A program made the position numbers and the translations under genes. Below, piece by piece: positions 53,945-64,000 of a stretch of 64,000 nt of DNA; the stretch's first letter is position 1, and every line of letters starts with the position of its first letter. The notes under the pieces were generated by a model. That model ran no database searches and was not told where the DNA came from. It saw only the letters and a list, made by a program, of their open reading frames with translations. This DNA comes from an uncultured Rhodanobacteraceae bacterium (GTDB taxonomy: Bacteria > Pseudomonadota > Gammaproteobacteria > Xanthomonadales > SZUA-5), in contig CALEZI010000117.1 in the NCBI GenBank assembly GCA_937928755.1, positions 21,541 to 85,540 on the forward strand. Reading direction: 5' to 3'.

Positions 53945-54068
53945 TTATCCGCAAAAGACGCAAAAGACGCAAAGGACGCAAAGAAAGCAGGAACGCGAAC
54001 AGTGGCCATGTAACTTTCCCTGCTCCCCTTTGCGTCCTTTGCGTCCTTTGCGTCCTTTGCGGACAAAA
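53945..54068. repeat. family-A k-mer-arm hairpin element (best-preserved copy)
   Basis: ATCCGCAAAAGACGCAAAAGACGCAAAGGACGCAAAGAAAGCAGG ... CCTGCTCCCCTTTGCGTCCTTTGCGTCCTTTGCGTCCTTTGCGGAC, with a loop of about 28 nt. Confidence 0.9.
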
Positions 54069-55718: not shown

Positions 55719-55830
55719 GTGAAACGTTAAATGTCAAACGTCAAACGTCAATTGAAAAGCACGGCGGGCAGCGCTTTTCGTTTCACGTTTCACGTTTCAC
55801 GTTTCACACCTTTCACCTTTCACGTTTCAC
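55719..55830. repeat. k-mer-arm hairpin element, type B (7-mer GTGAAAC/GTCAAAC arms)
   Basis: Left arm GTGAAACGTTAAATGTCAAACGTCAAACGTCAATTGAAAAGC, a 12-nt loop, and right arm GCTTTTC(GTTTCAC)x4 ACCTTTCACCTTTCACGTTTCAC. The right arm overlaps the last codons and the stop of ispG. Confidence 0.8.
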
Positions 55831-57095: not shown

Positions 57096-57292
57096 GAGAA
57101 GCGGGGCAAGGGGCAGGGGGCAAGGGAAATGGCGCAAAGCTTCGTTTGCAGCGTTGTCGCGGACCGGAGGCTCTGAACGGCACGTGCCCCGCGCAAGGTC
57201 TCAGGCTTGGCGCCCGAAATCGCACGCCGCGACGGTGCCCGTGCATGGCGCAACGGCTGGTCCCCTGCCCCCTGCCCCCTGCCCCGCTCTTC
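57096..57292. repeat. k-mer-arm hairpin element, type C (7-mer GGGGCAG/GGGGCAA arms)
   Basis: The 32-nt arm GAGAAGCGGGGCAAGGGGCAGGGGGCAAGGGA (57096-57127) pairs with TCCCCTGCCCCCTGCCCCCTGCCCCGCTCTTC (57261-57292). The arms are 28/32 complementary, with a 133-nt loop. Confidence 0.8.
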
Positions 57293-57356: not shown

Positions 57357-59090
57357 TCACACCGTCGACCAGATCTCGTCGAGTTCAGCCGCAGGCGGCG
57401 CTTCCGGTGCCTCGAGCGAGCGACCGGAAATCGGCATGTTGCCGTAGCGGAATTGTTTGTAGGCTCCGGTGTTTTCCAGCAGCTCGAGTGCTTCCAGCGG
57501 CTCGGACAACACGCGAACTTCCATGCCGGTTGAATCGGGCAGACGCAACAACTCAAGGCCGCCGGTCGAATCCAGGATCGATGGAGCCAGCAAGGTCGGA
57601 TGCTGGCTGCCGTCGATCGCCAGTGGCGCCAGCAACAGACCGCGCAGGATCACGCGGCTGGTATGCGCCTCACCGGTGGCGCGAACGGCAACGGCCTCGA
57701 CACGACGGCTGAGCAACTGAACGCCGGCTTCCAGGCTGTCGTTGTTGCCGCCCTTGAGCCAGCGCAGAACTCCAACCATCCAGTCCGGCTGGTCGTCCGC
57801 GTCCTGCGCCGGCGTCGACAATGCCACCAGTTCTCCGACCTTGGCCTTCAGTCCATCGGCGTTCTCCCAGAACAACCGGTAGCCGCCAAGGCTCTGATCG
57901 ACGACGCGCACACGCAGCGGCAACGGCACTGCAGCATCCGAACTGGATTGCGCCCAAGCCGCAGAGCGGTCGCGATCGCTGAGCGTGACCCCGCCGCCCA
58001 GTTCCGATACGAATTCGTTGAAATCGCGCTGTTCGGCAGCCAGGTAGTGCACCGCATGCAGGCCTATGCAGGTGTTCATCAGGTGATTTGCGGGCAGCCG
58101 CGGATGACCCCGTTCGCCGCTGAAACTCCACGCCACGCTGAGTTTTTCGACCACCTCGCCGGACACCTCCGGCCCTTGGCCCAGGCGACCACGCACCGCG
58201 ATCGGGGCGTCGATCGCCGGCAGCACCCGCAACTGATTCTGCAGCGACTGTACCAAACCGCTGCTGTCCAGACGCCAGTAGGGGCCGTCGATCTCCGCGC
58301 GCGGCGACATCGGCGGCGCATCCGAGCGCGGATCGATGACGAACGACCCGATCGCGCCCTTGTGATCGATCTTGCAGTGCGTCGACCAGATCTTGGCGGC
58401 CGCCTCGATGTCGACGATCTCTTTCTGCGTCAGTCGGTACGGATTGCCGATGAAGGTCAGCAGCGTCTGCAGATAGACGCTTTCCGGCGTCAGCGTGATG
58501 CCGGGCACCTGCGGGTCGGTGATTGCCTTGTCCGACAACTGCGCCTCATAGGCAAATCCGGCGAGCCGATGCAGCAAGCCCCAAACGCCAGCCGGAATTT
58601 CGCTGTAGGCGATGTAGCACTTGCTCAGCAATTGCGAGCAATGACTGAGTGCGCGCACCAGCGCCAGCGCCGTGCTGCGGCCGCGCAGGAAAGGCACGCT
58701 GCCGCGCGGGGCGCAATAGTCGTGCACGCAGATCGCGAAACCGAGCGCCAGCTCGCGATGGAAGTCGCGCATCACCGCGCCGATCTGGCGCTTCTGCAGC
58801 GGCAACGGCAACGGCTGTCCGAGCACGTGACGTTCCATGCTGGAAATCACCACCGCCACCGGGTGACGCATCTGCTCGAGTATCTCGACGCGCTGGTTGG
58901 GCTCGACATCCAGCTGGTTGAGTTCCTTCAAGCCGTTGTAGAGCAGGCGGGCGGTGGCGCCGCTGTTGGCCATCGGCAGCGCCTCGATCCACGCCTTGAC
59001 GGCCTTGCCAGTCGTCGGAAACGCATCACGACCGGGTCGCTCGCGCCTGGGAAGTGCCCCCCTGAGCAACTCGAACGCGCTTTCGGCCAT
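57357..59090 (-). CDS. hypothetical 577-aa protein with a C-terminal PilZ-like beta-barrel (possible c-di-GMP receptor)
   Basis: ATG at 59090. The C-terminal third contains LRVRVVDQSLGGYRLFW...GELVAL....WMVGVLRW, which resembles the D.S..G strand pattern of PilZ domains. A canonical RxxxR is not obvious. Confidence 0.5.
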   Translation of the reverse strand: MAESAFELLRGALPRRERPGRDAFPTTGKAVKAWIEALPMANSGATARLLYNGLKELNQLDVEPNQRVEILEQMRHPVAVVISSMERHVLGQPLPLPLQKRQIGAVMRDFHRELALGFAICVHDYCAPRGSVPFLRGRSTALALVRALSHCSQLLSKCYIAYSEIPAGVWGLLHRLAGFAYEAQLSDKAITDPQVPGITLTPESVYLQTLLTFIGNPYRLTQKEIVDIEAAAKIWSTHCKIDHKGAIGSFVIDPRSDAPPMSPRAEIDGPYWRLDSSGLVQSLQNQLRVLPAIDAPIAVRGRLGQGPEVSGEVVEKLSVAWSFSGERGHPRLPANHLMNTCIGLHAVHYLAAEQRDFNEFVSELGGGVTLSDRDRSAAWAQSSSDAAVPLPLRVRVVDQSLGGYRLFWENADGLKAKVGELVALSTPAQDADDQPDWMVGVLRWLKGGNNDSLEAGVQLLSRRVEAVAVRATGEAHTSRVILRGLLLAPLAIDGSQHPTLLAPSILDSTGGLELLRLPDSTGMEVRVLSEPLEALELLENTGAYKQFRYGNMPISGRSLEAPEAPPAAELDEIWSTV

Positions 59091-59171
59091 AGGTCCAACT
59101 CCCTTCCCCTGGGCCGTGCATGATAACCCGCCGGCGACCCACCTCGAAGTTTTTGCGGTCAATGCGCGTGG

Positions 59172-59217
59172 CCCGATTGCGGCCGACCCGGTTGCATACC
59201 TACACTCCGCAATCGGG
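59172..59217. promoter_or_regulatory. 11-bp perfect inverted repeat CCCGATTGCGG-N24-CCGCAATCGGG in the divergent promoter region
   Basis: Located 24 nt upstream of the ATG at 59241, between the divergently transcribed 57357-59090 and 59241-61640 genes. Confidence 0.3.
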
Positions 59218-59240
59218 GATCAGCCACAGGCGGAACAACG

Positions 59241-61640
59241 ATGTCGGACATCGTCGAAATCGCAATCGTCGGCTCGGGGCCGGGCGGCATCAGTGCCGCT
59301 GCTCGTGCCGCCGAACTCAAAGTGTCGCACGTGTTGCTGGAAGCTGCGCCGCACCTGTCGAACACGATCTTCCGCTATCAGAAAGGCAAACACGTGATGG
59401 CCGAGCCCGAGGCTCTGCCGTTGCGCTCGCCGCTGACCTTCAGCGCCGGCAGTCGCGAATCGATCCTCGAGGCCTGGGACCAGGGCGTCGCCAGCCTCGC
59501 GGTGAACGTGCGCCATGGCGCAGAGATCACGGCGATCAAGAAGCTGGATGACCACTTCGAACTCAGCATCGGCCGCAAGGACAAGCTGCTGGCGCGCAAT
59601 GTGGTACTCGGCATCGGCCTGCAGGGCAACATCCGCAAACTGGGCGTACCCGGCGACGACGCGCCCTTTGTCCAGTACACCCTCGACGATCCAGACGAAT
59701 ACGAAGGCGAGACCATCATCGTGGTCGGCGCCGGCGACGCCGCGATCGAAAACGCCGTGGCGCTGGCCAGGCAGAATCAGGTCGTGGTGGTCAACCGCCG
59801 CGAGGAATTCGCACGCGCCAAGGAAGGCAACCTGCGCGCCATCAGCAAGGCCATCGAGGACGGCGTGATCGAGTGTTACTTCGGCGCTGCGCCAGAACGC
59901 GTCGACAAACTCTCGGTCGGCCGCAAGCCGGGTCGACTGATCCTGAACACGCCCAAGGGCCGCGCCCAGGTGCTCTGCGACCGCATCATCGGTCGCCTCG
60001 GCGCCAACCCGCCGCGCGCCTTCGTCGAGGCCTGCGGCGTGGTGTTTCCGAATGCCGATCCATCGGCAGTGCCGGCGATCAGCGCCAAGTACGAGAGCAA
60101 CGTGCCCGGCCTCTACATCGTCGGCGCCCTCGGCGGTTATCCGCTGATCAAGCAGGCGATGAACCAGGGCTATGAGGTGGTCGAGTACATCCTCGGCCGC
60201 AGCGTGGAGCCCGCCGACGAGCCACTGCTGCGCGCCAAGTTCCAGAGCATGCCAGGCTTCAGCTCAGTCGGCGCGGCGCTGGAGAAGGTGCAGTCGGCGG
60301 TGCCCTTGCTGGCGACCATCACGCCGCTGCAGTTGCGCGAATTCATGATCGATTCGGATATCCGCACACCGAAATCCGGGGAGATTCTGTTCAAGCGCAA
60401 CGACTACACCAACAGCTTCTACTGCATCGTTGCGGGACAGGTCGAGATTCTGGTCGACGAGGCGGCAGGCAAGCGCGTGGCACTCGGCCCCGGCGAGTTT
60501 TTCGGTGAGATGAGCCTAATCTCGGGGCGTCGTCGCAGCGCCACGGTTTTCGCTGGCGCCAACTGCGTGCTGATCGAAACCCCGCGACGGTCGATGACCA
60601 AACTGATCAACTCGGTCGACGCGGTCAAGAAGCTGGTCGACCGCACCTTCGTCGAACGTGCCATCCGCGCGCGCTTTGGCGACGAGGCGACCGTCGCGCA
60701 GATCAAGGAGGTGGTATCGGGCGCCTCGCTGCAGCGCTTCAAGGCCGGCGAGGTCCTGTTCCGCGAGGGCGACGACGGCGATTGTCTGCACCTCGTTCGC
60801 GTCGGATCGTTGACCATTTCCAGGTCGATCGGCGGTCGCGACATCGTCCTGTCCTACGTACCCGCCGGCAACTACGTCGGCGAAATGGCGATCATCGGCG
60901 GCAGCAAGCGTTCGGCGACGGCGAAGGCTGCGGTCGCGACCGAGACCATTCGCGTCGAGCGCGACGCATTTCGCAAGCTGCTCGGTCAGAATCCGCTGTT
61001 GCGCGCGAAGCTGGCGCAGGAGGTCAAACAACGCACCGCCGAGAACATCACCATGCAGGCGGCCGCCTCGGGCGGCGACATCATTTCCTTCCTCGTCGGA
61101 CAGGGCCTCGGCGAGGCCACCGACGTGCTGTTGATCGACGAGTCCTTGTGCGTGCGCTGCGACAACTGCGAGAAGGCCTGCGCCGAAACCCACGGCGGCA
61201 CCTCGCGACTGGATCGAGAAGCCGGGCCGACCTTTGCCAACGTGCACGTGCCGACCTCCTGCCGACACTGCGAGCACCCGCACTGCATGAAGGATTGCCC
61301 GGCGGACGCCATTCACCGCGCACCCAACGGCGAGGTCTACATTGCCGACAACTGCATCGGCTGCGGCAATTGCGAACGCAACTGCCCGTATGGCGTCATC
61401 CACATGTCGGCCAAACCGAAGAAGAAGCCGGGACTGCTGCAATGGTTGTTGCTCGGTGCCGGCCCTGGCCCCGGCGAGTCGCCTTATGACCCCGACAGCC
61501 ACGAAAAGAAAGCGGTCAAGTGCGATATGTGCAAGGACATCAAGGGTGGTGCCTCATGCGTGCGCGCCTGCCCGACCGGCGCGGCGATCCGCATCAGCCC
61601 GGAACAACTGCCTGAATACGCCTTTGCTCGGGGGCCGTGA
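59241..61640 (+). CDS. multidomain redox/signalling protein: FAD/NAD(P)-binding reductase + two cNMP-binding domains + 4x[4Fe-4S] ferredoxin domain
   Basis: IAIVGSGPGGISAA and IIVVGAGDAAIENA dinucleotide folds. Two CAP-type cNMP motifs (FFGEMSLISGRRRSATV, YVGEMAIIGGSKRSATA). Four Cys clusters (CVRCDNCEKAC, CRHCEHPHCMKDCP, CIGCGNCERNCP, CDMC...CVRACP). Confidence 0.8.
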   Translation: MSDIVEIAIVGSGPGGISAAARAAELKVSHVLLEAAPHLSNTIFRYQKGKHVMAEPEALPLRSPLTFSAGSRESILEAWDQGVASLAVNVRHGAEITAIKKLDDHFELSIGRKDKLLARNVVLGIGLQGNIRKLGVPGDDAPFVQYTLDDPDEYEGETIIVVGAGDAAIENAVALARQNQVVVVNRREEFARAKEGNLRAISKAIEDGVIECYFGAAPERVDKLSVGRKPGRLILNTPKGRAQVLCDRIIGRLGANPPRAFVEACGVVFPNADPSAVPAISAKYESNVPGLYIVGALGGYPLIKQAMNQGYEVVEYILGRSVEPADEPLLRAKFQSMPGFSSVGAALEKVQSAVPLLATITPLQLREFMIDSDIRTPKSGEILFKRNDYTNSFYCIVAGQVEILVDEAAGKRVALGPGEFFGEMSLISGRRRSATVFAGANCVLIETPRRSMTKLINSVDAVKKLVDRTFVERAIRARFGDEATVAQIKEVVSGASLQRFKAGEVLFREGDDGDCLHLVRVGSLTISRSIGGRDIVLSYVPAGNYVGEMAIIGGSKRSATAKAAVATETIRVERDAFRKLLGQNPLLRAKLAQEVKQRTAENITMQAAASGGDIISFLVGQGLGEATDVLLIDESLCVRCDNCEKACAETHGGTSRLDREAGPTFANVHVPTSCRHCEHPHCMKDCPADAIHRAPNGEVYIADNCIGCGNCERNCPYGVIHMSAKPKKKPGLLQWLLLGAGPGPGESPYDPDSHEKKAVKCDMCKDIKGGASCVRACPTGAAIRISPEQLPEYAFARGP

Positions 61641-62536
61641 CGATGCATGACTCGATTCTCGATTACCGCGGCTTCCGCTACCTCTGGGTGGCGCTGATCC
61701 TGTCGATCGGATCGATCGTCGCCTATGTCTGGCATGACCCGATAGGCGTGCCCAATGGCGGGTCCTGGCTCGGCTACACGCTCGGCACCATCGGCGCCCT
61801 GCTGATCTTGTGGCTGCTCTGGTTCGGTATCCGCAAGCGCCGTTATTCCGGCGGCAGCGGCACCGCTCGCGGCTGGTTGTCGGCGCATGTATACCTCGGC
61901 ACCACGCTGATCCTGATCGCGTTCCTGCATGCCGGCTTCCAAGTCGGCTGGAACATCCACACGCTGGCGCTGGTCTTGATGCTGCTGGTGATCTTCAGCG
62001 GCTTTTTCGGCGTTTATGCGTACTTGCGCTATCCCGCGATGATGACGCGCAATCGCGCCGACACCACGCGCGACGCGATGCTCGCCGAGATTCGCGAACT
62101 CGACCAGCAGACCCTGCAGCTCGCCGACAAGGTCGACAAGAGCATCCACGACGCCATTCTGAGCTCGATTCAGCACACCCAACTCGGCGGTGGTGTCTGG
62201 ACGCAACTGAGTGCGCGCGACGACTCCGGATTGGCTCTGGCCAAGCTCAAGGAAGCCGTACTCAAGTCGGAAACCGGGGAAAAGTCATCGAAATCCGGTC
62301 AGACCATGGTGATGATGGTCGATTTCCTCGCCAACCAGGCCACCGATGCACAATCGGAAAACCTGCGCAGACTGATCGATCTGGTCTCGCGCAAGCGCGC
62401 CCTGGCAGCGCGCGTCGCGCGCGACATCCAACTCCAGGCGCTGATGGAAATCTGGCTCTACATCCATGTCCCGCTGTCGCTCGGATTGCTCGGTGCGCTG
62501 ACGGCGCATGTGGTGGCGGTGTTTTTTTATTGGTGA
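61637..62536 (+). CDS. integral membrane protein with conserved His residues in TM helices (possible haem-b electron-transfer subunit)
   Basis: An ATGA overlap links it to the upstream gene. Four N-terminal TM helices contain WLSAHVYLG, IAFLHAGF and NIHTLAL, followed by a soluble helical segment and a C-terminal TM helix. Confidence 0.6.
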   Translation: MTMHDSILDYRGFRYLWVALILSIGSIVAYVWHDPIGVPNGGSWLGYTLGTIGALLILWLLWFGIRKRRYSGGSGTARGWLSAHVYLGTTLILIAFLHAGFQVGWNIHTLALVLMLLVIFSGFFGVYAYLRYPAMMTRNRADTTRDAMLAEIRELDQQTLQLADKVDKSIHDAILSSIQHTQLGGGVWTQLSARDDSGLALAKLKEAVLKSETGEKSSKSGQTMVMMVDFLANQATDAQSENLRRLIDLVSRKRALAARVARDIQLQALMEIWLYIHVPLSLGLLGALTAHVVAVFFYW

Positions 62537-62537
62537 T

Positions 62538-62660
62538 GAAGCGGGAAAAGGGGAAATGGAAAATGGAAAAGGGAAAGGCAACAGCAATGCGCGGGCGCAA
62601 GTCGCACTCTTCGCACCTCCTTTTTCCTTTTTCCTTTTTCCTTTTTCCCCTTCCCCGCCC
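62538..62660. repeat. k-mer-arm hairpin element, type D (7-mer GGAAAAN / CCTTTTT arms)
   Basis: Left arm GAAGCGGGAAAAGGGGAAATGGAAAATGGAAAAGGGAAAGG, and right arm CCTCC(TTTTTCC)x4-like run ending CCCCTTCCCCGCCC. It shares the terminal GAAGCGGG motif with type C. Confidence 0.8.
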
Positions 62661-62684
62661 TGACTCGGCCGAGGATCGCGCGCC

Positions 62685-64000
62685 ATGAAATGGTTCATTC
62701 GCCGCGTCATCAAGAAGGGCAAAGGCAGCCTGCAGTTCGAGGAAGAAATTCACTTCGGCGAGACGCTGACCGTTGGCCGTGCCGCCAATCAGGCCATTTT
62801 CATCAACGACCTGCGTGCCGCACTGGAGCATGCCCGCGTCGTCGCGCTGGGTAACGGTCGTTATCGTGTCGAGTCGCTGGTCGCCTCCGGAATACGCATC
62901 GATGGTCGCTTCGAGCACGCCGCGACGGCCACTTCCGGCTGCACCCTCGAAATTGGCAACGTGCGCATCACGCTGGTGGACCCGCCTGCCGACTTTGAAG
63001 CTGCGGTGGAAGTCGGGTTGGTCGACAAGGCTGAAGTCGCCGCGCGCGAAATATCCGAAGCGCTGCCGCAGTCATTGGCCGAAGCGGGACTTGGCAAACG
63101 CAAGCTGGCTTGGACTTTGCTGCTGCTGACGCTCGCATTCGGGCTGTTGTTGCCCGTTGCCGCGCATTTCGTCCCCACCTTCCGAGCGATCACCAAGGAC
63201 GTTCCAGCCGTCGGACTCAACGCTTGGGACAGTGGTCCACTGGCAGCCGCCCACCACACCATGGCGAACGATTGCCAGAGTTGCCACGGCGAGCCGTTCA
63301 ACGTGGTCGCCGACGACAAATGCATCGTCTGTCATGCGGGCACTGCCGCGCATGCGGATCCGGTGAAATATCCGTTGCCGGACATCGCCGATGCCCGCTG
63401 CGCACATTGCCATCGCGATCACAACGGCGACGACGGCCTGGTGCGCGCCGATCAGGAACTCTGCAGCGACTGCCATCGCAACCTGAGCGAACGCGTCAAC
63501 GGCGACACACTGCTGGTCGATGTGTCCGATTTCGGCAGCAACCACCCGCAATTCAAGATTCTGCTGCCGGCGTGGGATGCGCAGGGACGGTATCAGCCGG
63601 AACGGGTCAGCATGGACCAGATTCCGTTGACCGAACGCTCCGGCCTCAAGTTCCCGCATTCAAAACATCTGCCTGCCGCAGGCTTGAAGACTCCCGATGG
63701 CGTGCGCGTGCTCGACTGCGTCGATTGCCACAAACCCGAGCCGGGCGGTGCGCTGATCGCGCCGATCAATTTCGAACTGCACTGCCAGTCGTGCCATCGC
63801 ATTGATTTCGACCTGCGCATGCCGGACCGCCAGGTGCCGCACGGGAATGCCGCCGAAGTGCAGTACATGCTCGACGAGTTCTATTCCAAGGTCGCGCTGG
63901 AAGGCGGATACGACGACGTTCAGGCACCGGTGACGGTGCGCCAGCGCAGGCGCCCTGGCGAGGCGCCGCCCAATGCTCAGGAGCAACGCGAAGCACTGGC
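62685..64000 (+). CDS. FHA-like domain / single TM helix / multihaem c-type cytochrome, 3'-partial (not in the supplied ORF track)
   Basis: I translated from the ATG at 62685 and found no stop to the window end (438 codons). N-terminal LTVGRAANQAIFINDLRAALEHARVV..GNGRYRVE...GIRIDGR....LEIGNVRITL is FHA-like. TM helix WTLLLLTLAFGLLLPVAA. Six CxxCH motifs follow: CQSCH, CIVCH, CAHCH, CSDCH, CVDCH, CQSCH. Confidence 0.75.
   Translation, partial: MKWFIRRVIKKGKGSLQFEEEIHFGETLTVGRAANQAIFINDLRAALEHARVVALGNGRYRVESLVASGIRIDGRFEHAATATSGCTLEIGNVRITLVDPPADFEAAVEVGLVDKAEVAAREISEALPQSLAEAGLGKRKLAWTLLLLTLAFGLLLPVAAHFVPTFRAITKDVPAVGLNAWDSGPLAAAHHTMANDCQSCHGEPFNVVADDKCIVCHAGTAAHADPVKYPLPDIADARCAHCHRDHNGDDGLVRADQELCSDCHRNLSERVNGDTLLVDVSDFGSNHPQFKILLPAWDAQGRYQPERVSMDQIPLTERSGLKFPHSKHLPAAGLKTPDGVRVLDCVDCHKPEPGGALIAPINFELHCQSCHRIDFDLRMPDRQVPHGNAAEVQYMLDEFYSKVALEGGYDDVQAPVTVRQRRRPGEAPPNAQEQREAL

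Follow-up and report, generated by a model that had tools for sequence, protein, structure and literature searches.

Several inner-membrane entries that feed multihaem or flavin carriers of the periplasm or the cell exterior are known in bacteria, i.e., CymA/NapC/NrfH, ImcH, CbcL and the Ndh2-EetAB-PplA route of Listeria. Among them, CbcL unites dihaem b and multihaem c domains, and Listeria exports its electrons via a dedicated NADH dehydrogenase. To our knowledge, all of these entries work via the quinone pool. Here, we analysed a stretch of 64,000 nucleotides (the window) from an uncultured Rhodanobacteraceae bacterium (assembly GCA_937928755.1, contig CALEZI010000117.1, positions 21,541 to 85,540) and, more precisely, the genes at its end, in which a preliminary description had seen an electron wire running from cytoplasmic NAD(P)H to a periplasmic cytochrome. 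Three plus-strand genes are at the heart of this locus: g2, which encodes a fusion of a thioredoxin reductase (TrxR)-like FAD module, two cyclic-nucleotide (cNMP)-binding domains and a ferredoxin; g3, which encodes a membrane protein with five predicted transmembrane (TM) helices; and g4, which encodes a ten-haem cytochrome anchored beside an FHA domain. In contrast to the quinol-linked cytochromes, the iron–sulfur (FeS) chain and the putative dihaem protein of this locus suggest a direct link that does not pass through quinones. We consider it somewhat probable that a widely conserved trans-envelope redox system of six to seven genes has its cytoplasmic-membrane module in g2, g3 and g4, which would constitute a cNMP-gated, quinone-independent chain from NAD(P)H to the periplasm.

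Bacterial NOX proteins have been described (PMC5676040), and MsrQ is presented as a membrane-bound haemoprotein passing electrons specifically to periplasmic MsrP (PMC12525009). Both NOX and the Fre-MsrQ-MsrP system follow the order that we propose for the window locus, i.e., a cytoplasmic NAD(P)H flavoprotein, then a membrane protein with two stacked bis-His b-haems, then a partner outside the cytoplasm, and a Planctomycetota flavoprotein–g3 fusion (see below) mirrors the layout of fused NOX. They differ from it in three respects, since the flavin module of the window system is of the TrxR type and not of the FNR type, its electron path is interrupted by four [4Fe-4S] clusters and a pair of cNMP domains, and the predicted acceptor is a decahaem cytochrome and neither O2 nor a molybdoenzyme. 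Unlike MsrQ, g3 has five TM helices and a cytoplasmic helical insert of about 135 residues, and homology between the two was not detected (E=0.099).

Another comparison comes from sulfate reducers, in which the Hmc, Tmc and DsrMKJOP complexes unite a multihaem cytochrome c of the periplasm, a cytochrome b in the membrane and an FeS protein of the cytoplasm. Their cytoplasmic subunit is HdrD-like, with CCG domains, and their membrane subunits are of the NarI/HdrE or NrfD type. Like the window system, they form a conduit joining periplasmic and cytoplasmic redox chemistry, but they have no NAD(P)H site and no cNMP or FHA domains, whereas g2 is a flavo-ferredoxin devoid of a CCG/HdrD domain. Indeed, no CCG/HdrD family is found among the Pfam or NCBIfam matches of g2, and its scores against DsrO (38 bits for a cutoff of 200) and HmcB (31 bits for a cutoff of 420) reflect a generic four-cluster ferredoxin only.

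The described system that comes nearest in architecture is the one of Ferrigenium straubiae. Its nonahaem protein 'NHC' has an FHA domain in the cytosol, a multihaem domain in the periplasm and one TM helix, and it has as neighbours a five-TM protein without InterPro match and a cytosolic [4Fe-4S] protein, the function being given as unknown (bioRxiv 10.64898/2026.01.22.701106). According to the same preprint, the FHA-multihaem combination was previously unreported and no redox motif was found in the TM protein. Judged by its published description, this trio appears to correspond to the g4/g3/g2 core. It differs from the core by its nine haems, against ten in g4; by the interpretation of its TM protein, taken as non-redox in the preprint, where quinone reduction is proposed; and by the fact that FAD domains, cNMP domains and the four additional genes described below all go unmentioned in the preprint. 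Our searches of the literature on LVIVD with multihaem proteins, on GlcG with multihaem proteins and on TrxR-like with multihaem proteins gave no account of the full operon, and every operon member is annotated either as hypothetical or with a generic domain label only. This preprint alone appears to mention what looks like the core trio.

The three proteins of the core

The g2 gene (59241..61640, plus strand) encodes 799 aa. Its reading as an FAD/NAD(P) module followed by two cNMP domains and a four-cluster ferredoxin, already proposed in the preliminary description, is borne out by profile searches. Residues 1-330 (59241..60230) correspond to a TrxR-like FAD/NAD(P)H module with two Rossmann folds, matched in Pfam by Pyr_redox_3 (E=1.3e-26) and Pyr_redox_2 (E=4.9e-21). 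In an alignment of 18 sequences, the residues G11/G13/G16 and G163/G165/D166/E170 of this module are invariant. The same alignment contains no redox-active CxxC within residues 1-636, the first invariant Cys being residue 637, and the nearest NCBIfam models remain far from their cutoffs (YpdA, TIGR04018, 112 bits for a cutoff of 340; TrxR, TIGR01292, 53 bits for a cutoff of 343). We therefore rejected the possibility that g2 is a thioredoxin or bacillithiol disulfide reductase, because it lacks the CxxC and scores far under these equivalog cutoffs; only the fold is shared. Since it has no disulfide centre, g2 would rather behave like a ferredoxin reductase of the TrxR type and, by analogy with these enzymes, its flavin module more plausibly supplies its own ferredoxin domain.

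The central part of g2, at residues ~350-600 (60288..61040), carries tandem cNMP-binding domains of the PKA-R/PKG type, recognized both in Pfam and in the PDB. Two copies of cNMP_binding (PF00027) are matched (E=6.6e-39, 132 bits for a cutoff of 27.5), and residues 378-593 match structures of PKA/PKG regulatory domains with E-values from 1e-25 to 1e-20. Structurally, the cNMP domains of g2 hence come closest to those found in tandem in the regulatory subunits of PKA and PKG; in g2, they are fused into a redox protein. Both phosphate-binding cassettes read G-E...R-S-A-T (FFGEMSLISGRRRSAT and YVGEMAIIGGSKRSAT). Finally, residues ~625-790 (61113..61610) form a ferredoxin of the HycB/DmsB/NrfC type with room for four [4Fe-4S] clusters, as judged from Fer4 profiles and Cys positions. 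Fer4_6, Fer4_7, Fer4_9 and Fer4_11 are matched in Pfam (Fer4_11, Fer4_7 and Fer4_9 above cutoff), and NCBIfam and the PDB point to a resemblance with HycB, HydN and ArrB. Sixteen Cys, organized in four CxxCxxCxxxC(P)-type groups (C637/640/643/647, C674/677/682/686, C705/708/711/715 and C761/764/773/777), are invariant across the 18 g2 sequences, which share 30-74 % identity; this number would be enough for four [4Fe-4S] clusters.

The next gene, g3 (61643..62536, plus strand), encodes a protein of 297 aa that matches no Pfam or NCBIfam family above threshold. The preliminary description had noticed histidines inside its TM helices and proposed them as haem-b ligands, and the alignments agree with this proposal. 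His82 and His96 lie on TM3, His275 and His289 on TM5 (codons at 61886, 61928, 62465 and 62507), each pair being spaced as Hx13H. These four His are invariant in 21 sequences that are 19-51 % identical, including g3-like proteins of other phyla that are only ~20 % identical and adjoin other flavoproteins. If the RKRR loop is cytoplasmic, as the positive-inside rule would have it, each pair would have one His near the inner face of the membrane and one near the outer face. On this basis, g3 is probably a transmembrane conduit with two b-haems, stacked and each held by two His. Below threshold, and among 16 members of the g3 family, matches to Ni_hydr_CYTB (9/16), DUF4405 (5/16) and Ferric_reduct (PF01794, 2/16) are observed, the best E-values being 9.6e-5 (PF01292, prokaryotic cytochrome b561) and 8.4e-4 (PF14358). 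These cytochrome b matches are suggestive; they are consistent with the proposed role, short of family membership. One homologue of g3 in UniRef bears the name 'Ferric reductase like transmembrane component'. A Foldseek comparison of two AlphaFold2 (AF2) models of g3 (pLDDT 63 and 72) with the PDB returned nothing better than E=0.3, and the g3-family profile run against PDB sequences gave coiled-coil noise on the cytoplasmic insert only.

The third gene, g4 (62685..64000, plus strand), is cut by the end of the window, which holds 438 of the 570 aa of its translation. The full-length protein was taken from a metagenome contig (L001) that is identical to the window (window coordinate = L001 + 49240). 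The preliminary description had recognized an FHA-like domain, one TM helix and at least six CxxCH motifs in g4. All three are found again, with six CxxCH in the window and ten in the full protein, and ten are also present in all nine complete orthologues examined. The full protein matches Cytochrome_C7 (45 bits) and Cytochrom_c3_2 (38 bits), both above cutoff, and no decahaem cytochrome at the family level in NCBIfam (DmsE, 19.5 bits for a cutoff of 192; GSU2203, 18.3 bits for a cutoff of 325). It has no signal peptide, and a KRK motif stands ahead of its single predicted TM helix (aa 140-166, 63102-63182); the multihaem c domain, delimited by the CxxCH motifs and the c3/c7 profiles, begins at aa ~190 (63252 onward). 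Haems of the c type are attached in the periplasm. Since these haems lie beyond one TM helix, the FHA domain (aa ~25-100, 62757-62984) is placed in the cytoplasm.

For a single g4 sequence, the FHA match is weak (PF00498, E=0.058), and a weak precomputed match also exists for the Tahibacter orthologue. A profile built from 12 g4 N-termini matches the FHA structures of GarA, OdhI and Rv0020c with E-values from 6.7e-14 to 1e-10. GarA and OdhI are the nearest relatives of this domain by sequence; in g4, the domain is built into a redox protein. Phosphothreonine binding canonically relies on the Arg of GR, the Ser and His of SxxH and the Asn of NG(T). In the g4 domain, G31 and H49 do not vary and R32 hardly does. 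On the contrary, the Ser of SxxH is replaced (by Ala, Leu, Asp or other residues) in 11 of the 12 orthologues, and the alignments show that the Asn of NG(T) is missing in most of them. Hence the FHA fold seen in the preliminary description is real, but the phosphothreonine input that it had attached to this fold is doubtful: the domain is more likely a docking or regulatory module than a classical phosphothreonine reader. A variant was observed in Thermoanaerobaculia, where a second TM helix and, at the C-terminus, an extra FHA domain are present in the g4 orthologue (L013 13331-15580, 749 aa). Unlike the N-terminal one, this extra domain displays fully canonical motifs (GR...SKRH...STNGT).

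Partner genes, sister loci and a natural fusion

A genome scan with the g2 alignment retrieved 13 loci with full-length relatives, in Gamma- and Alphaproteobacteria and in Acidobacteriota. The g2, g3 and g4 genes are consecutive in ten of these loci, and in the remaining three g2 lies at the 3' end of the operon beside the gene of a tetrahaem cytochrome, so that all 13 fit the operon. Four more conserved genes accompany g2-g4, and the unit therefore comprises six to seven genes; the suspicion that further components lie past the end of the window was thus justified. Three of these partners are found downstream of g4 on the identical contig (L001 16620-22400), i.e., past position 64000. They encode a lipoprotein with GlcG/HbpS-like domains (677 aa in the lineage of the window); a protein of ~596 aa with a signal peptide, a C-terminus ending in ...ILTY and a weak porin match, which makes it a putative outer-membrane barrel; and a secreted protein of ~1250 aa (1295 aa on L001) that carries ten CxxCH and ends in an LVIVD beta-propeller. 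The fourth partner is a c554-like tetrahaem cytochrome of ~430 aa. Of all components of the system, the decahaem/beta-propeller protein is the best conserved, with 62-70 % identity across phyla and many invariant non-haem residues. This high conservation suggests a catalytic role, i.e., an enzyme and not a passive wire. A phmmer search of this protein against the PDB returned nothing.

This protein also gave access to a larger sample, since it has more than 570 relatives in metagenomes among the matches listed. We measured linkage in the best 80 of these loci, counting for each gene only the loci with enough flanking sequence. The putative barrel is present in 59/59 of them, the lipoprotein in 43/43, g4 in 33/34, g3 in 27/28 and g2 in 15/17 (eight times at the 5' end and seven times at the 3' end), and the tetrahaem cytochrome in 41/58. 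Clustering of the remaining open reading frames (ORFs) of these metagenome loci revealed no further broadly conserved family. The linkage proposed from the window is hence conserved in all of the genome loci and in nearly all of the metagenome loci that could be scored.

Some additional genes were observed in or beside the operon. In the lineage of the window only, g4 and the lipoprotein gene are separated by a Cys-rich DUF3011 gene on the minus strand (L001 15405-16424); at the same position, Tahibacter carries two ClpS genes and a bPH_2 gene. Tahibacter amnicola (CP104694.1) also has, between g2 and g3, an ORF of 148 aa without Pfam family (L165 12419-12865) that is lacking in the window. 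A gene for a PP2C Ser/Thr phosphatase is appended to the operon in three to four metagenome loci, directly after the tetrahaem gene in L159 (7508-8308), L152 (9508-10329) and L125 (12227-13045). In eight loci, the operon is adjoined by a CcmH/CycH gene for cytochrome c biogenesis (a further gene of this PP2C/CcmH set lies at L095 1756-3081). None of the loci examined showed a Hanks-type kinase motif.

Beyond the operon itself, g3-like proteins occur in sister loci, where a flavoprotein of ~450 aa, made of an N-terminal TM anchor, two [4Fe-4S] clusters and a TrxR-like FAD module, adjoins a g3-like protein with five TM helices. The hosts are Bacteroidota, Holophagae, Gemmatimonadota, Hyphomicrobium, Nitrospirae metagenome-assembled genomes (MAGs) and others (L020, L025, L071, L017, L021, L026, L029, L031 and L016). 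Cytochromes with 16-28 CxxCH are encoded near most of these loci, with two exceptions: none was found at L016, and at L031 the nearest multihaem ORF has 34 CxxCH and is ~5 kb off. The cNMP and FHA domains are absent from the sister system. In a Planctomycetota MAG (L018 9476-11707), the TM anchor, the two [4Fe-4S] clusters, the TrxR-like FAD module and a g3-type domain are joined in a single polypeptide of 743 aa. Its g3-type domain is matched by the g3-family profile hidden Markov model with E=4e-35 (hmmsearch) and has all four His, and multihaem cytochromes with 23 and 25 CxxCH follow. Of all the evidence gathered here, this natural fusion argues most strongly that the flavoprotein and g3 act as a single unit, in the way that the joined dehydrogenase and haem domains of NOX do.

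The neighbour g1, the junctions and the intergenic repeats

The preliminary description had placed four ORFs in this part of the window, including one of 577 aa on the minus strand and one of 799 aa on the plus strand, and these assignments were confirmed. Identical proteins are also present on several independent metagenome contigs and assemblies, which argues that g1-g4 are real genes. The first of them, g1 (57357..59090, minus strand, 577 aa counted from the ATG), is a FimW-like neighbour that stands outside the conserved module. Its only profile evidence is a precomputed match to PF27104 (FimW_N). The PilZ-like C-terminal barrel previously attributed to it was not recovered in Pfam, either with the whole protein or with its C-terminal 254 aa, and searches of Pfam, NCBIfam and the PDB gave no other family and no structural relative. 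By eye, a DQSLGG motif can be likened to the D/NxSxxG motif of PilZ; no RxxxR lies at the usual distance. More importantly, g1 is missing in 12 of the 13 genome loci with full-length g2 and in 79 of the 80 metagenome loci, the single metagenome homologue being 26 % identical and 8 kb from the operon. In Tahibacter, a FimW_N gene lies ~2.4 kb from g2, with another gene between them, which is ordinary local synteny among relatives. As an operon member, g1 was therefore rejected, its linkage to g2-g4 being confined to close relatives, and the cyclic di-GMP (c-di-GMP) input that it would have brought to the wire is unsupported because g1 lies outside the conserved unit.

The spacer between the divergent g1 and g2 (59091..59240) is exactly 150 bp long, as previously noted. 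A scan of this spacer for sigma-70-like promoters, which is weak evidence in either direction, found none. More generally, the promoter and terminator scan was uninformative, with zero promoters and terminators at chance level. This divergent layout of g1 and g2 is particular to the lineage of the window. Downstream, g2 and g3 do not share the ATGA overlap that had been reported: the junction reads ...CCG TGA CG ATG CAT..., i.e., the conserved ATG at 61643 follows the stop codon after 2 nt, and an alternative GTG start at 61637 would give a GTGA overlap. The tight linkage ascribed to the three plus-strand genes does not extend here to g3 and g4, which are 148 nt apart and separated by a strong hairpin.

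This imperfect hairpin (62541..62658, plus strand) opposes 4.9 copies of GGGAAAA to 4.4 copies of TCCTTTT, as delimited by Tandem Repeats Finder. Its 36-nt arms are 83 % complementary, and the predicted RNA fold reaches -66.6 kcal/mol (z=-3.7). It is missing in other genomes, where the distance from g3 to g4 is ~10-120 nt, and no further copy of its GGAAA/TTTCC element exists elsewhere in the window. The same architecture, i.e., paired inverted arrays of short tandem repeats, was observed at four intergenic sites (53950-54061, 55722-55830, 57103-57285 and, in the g3-g4 spacer, 62543-62648), with units of 7 or 9 nt in three to seven copies, each pair being able to form a long hairpin. The repeat unit varies from site to site (CGCAAAAGA, AAACGTC, GGGGCAA and GGGAAAA), and the architecture is constant. 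We rejected a defence or mobile-element setting for this region, whose flanking genes are housekeeping genes (ispG, pyrD and murB). The named relatives of the window proteins belong to Rhodanobacteraceae, Xanthomonadaceae, Tahibacter, Rudaea and Pseudomarimonas.

Direction of electron flow and significance

The cofactor motifs, the logic of the topology, the linkage of the genes and the fusion are established by this analysis, and from them we infer a complex of three proteins working as follows. NAD(P)H would be oxidised by g2 at its TrxR-like FAD domain, and the electrons would then run through the four [4Fe-4S] clusters of g2 itself. They would cross the membrane via two b-haems of g3, the one near the cytoplasm being held by His82/His275 and the one near the periplasm by His96/His289. 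The next acceptor would be the set of ten c-haems of TM-anchored g4, from which electrons may pass onward to the tetrahaem cytochrome, the decahaem/beta-propeller protein, the putative outer-membrane barrel and the GlcG/HbpS-like lipoprotein. The tandem cNMP domains, placed between the flavin and the FeS modules, would most likely gate what is otherwise a wasteful, quinone-independent leak of reductant. Because NAD(P)H is strongly reducing and electrons that leave the cytoplasm move with the membrane potential, established bioenergetics would favour an outward flow.

Several observations weigh against this chain. Sequence sets no constraint on the direction of flow, and the whole evidence base is made of sequence comparison and prediction. 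None of the g3 matches reaches any curated family threshold, most of them covering the last helix only, and the AF2 model of g3 is all-helical, of moderate confidence (pLDDT 72). The hhalign comparison of the g3 family with E. coli MsrQ is not significant (E=0.099), the one with YodB gives nothing, and it is at most suggestive that the former aligns the H82/H96 helix of g3 with MsrQ residues 117-165. The similarity of the decahaem/beta-propeller protein to known enzymes is also marginal, with E=0.036 for octahaem nitrite reductase (profile) and a partial match to ExtM. Moreover, the Arg of the cNMP cassettes is kept in roughly 11-12 of the 18 aligned g2 orthologues, the most distant of them having lost it, and gating by cNMP may therefore not be universal.

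The same complex could also run inward, the decahaem/beta-propeller protein oxidising a low-potential periplasmic or extracellular donor, and g4, g3 and g2 then reducing NAD(P)+, either as a redox loop or as a direct source of reductant. The architecture applies equally well to this direction, and the decahaem protein shows the highest conservation of all components, which suggests a catalytic site and agrees with it. The similar trio of the preprint was seen in an Fe(II) oxidiser, for which inward transfer, to quinone, was proposed (bioRxiv 10.64898/2026.01.22.701106). However, no donor-specific enzyme was recognized in the profile and structure searches of the operon proteins. In addition, established bioenergetics sets the transfer to NAD(P)+ against both the membrane potential and a couple at -320 mV, and because of these two terms the donor would have to lie near or below about -500 mV. 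The hosts also weigh against this direction, since most of them belong to lineages of soil, freshwater and wastewater (e.g., Rhodanobacteraceae, Tahibacter, Steroidobacteraceae and Rhizomicrobium) and are presumably heterotrophs. We consider the inward direction unlikely. We judge just as sceptically a model in which g3 is a haem-free scaffold, following the suggestion of the preprint, g4 trades electrons with the quinone pool like CymA, NapC and NrfH, and g2 is a redox/cNMP sensor or an accessory protein. This model would account for the lack of an above-threshold redox family in g3, in agreement with the InterPro result of the preprint, and for the NapC/NirT-like arrangement of g4, i.e., one TM anchor followed by periplasmic haems. 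A scaffold role is nevertheless hard to square with four His that remain invariant over very divergent sequences, with an exact Hx13H spacing on two helices; nor would a sensor or accessory g2 explain the retention of a complete FAD/NAD(P) module and of 16 cluster Cys, or the existence of a fused Fer4-FAD-g3 polypeptide. All haems of g4 also lie well past the TM helix, and a quinol-site motif was not noticed, in analyses that included no search aimed at one.

The last alternative keeps the outward wire and adds g1 to it, in a four-gene unit where c-di-GMP (through PilZ), phosphothreonine (through FHA) and cNMP would all act on the electron flow. The divergent position of g1 at 150 bp from g2, the proximity of a FimW_N protein to g2 in Tahibacter, the published description of FimW as a c-di-GMP effector of the PilZ type and the PP2C gene that follows the operon in three to four metagenome loci would all fit such a unit. 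They are confronted with the lack of g1 homologues in the other genome loci and in 79/80 metagenome loci, with the lack of any PilZ profile match in g1, with the action of FimW on type IV pili reported in the literature, with the loss of the canonical FHA Ser and Asn in most g4 orthologues, and with the Hanks-type kinase motif, which was found in no locus. This unit is very improbable. For the chain of g2, g3 and g4 that we prefer, the comparative data support the wire idea of the preliminary description and extend it to six to seven genes: the cofactor signatures are conserved, the three genes are linked across Gamma- and Alphaproteobacteria and Acidobacteriota, and a natural fusion exists. 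The profile searches confirmed the domains predicted in g2, g3 and g4 and not the PilZ domain of g1, and the earlier observation is essentially right, with minor corrections.

We also propose, more tentatively, a general picture for which the odds fall somewhat short of even: a second-messenger-gated 'split NOX wired to cytochromes', in which NAD(P)H electrons would be exported, independently of quinones, via a new dihaem-b family and an FHA-anchored decahaem cytochrome to a conserved decahaem/beta-propeller enzyme and an outer-membrane barrel. Such a system would be widespread in Proteobacteria and Acidobacteriota of soil, freshwater and wastewater, and a larger sister family, found in Bacteroidota, Gemmatimonadota, Planctomycetota and other phyla, would feed cytochromes of 16-28 haems. 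The known bacterial routes from the cytoplasmic membrane to multihaem cytochromes begin, as far as we know, at the quinone pool. A direct route from NAD(P)H to FAD, FeS, haem b and haem c would then represent a different design principle, and a built-in cyclic-nucleotide switch would mean that a redox chain is placed under allosteric control by a second messenger. The g3 proteins constitute a family that is unassigned in Pfam and NCBIfam, and their four invariant His make a directly testable prediction. The cluster is present in cultured Tahibacter amnicola (complete genome CP104694.1), and Tahibacter soli and Pseudomarimonas species, also in culture, have g2/g3 homologues. Genetics and biochemistry are therefore feasible. 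If this picture is true, the system would provide reducing power for periplasmic or extracellular chemistry, with oxidant detoxification, metal or humic reduction and N-oxide turnover as candidate uses, in organisms that are not regarded as electroactive.

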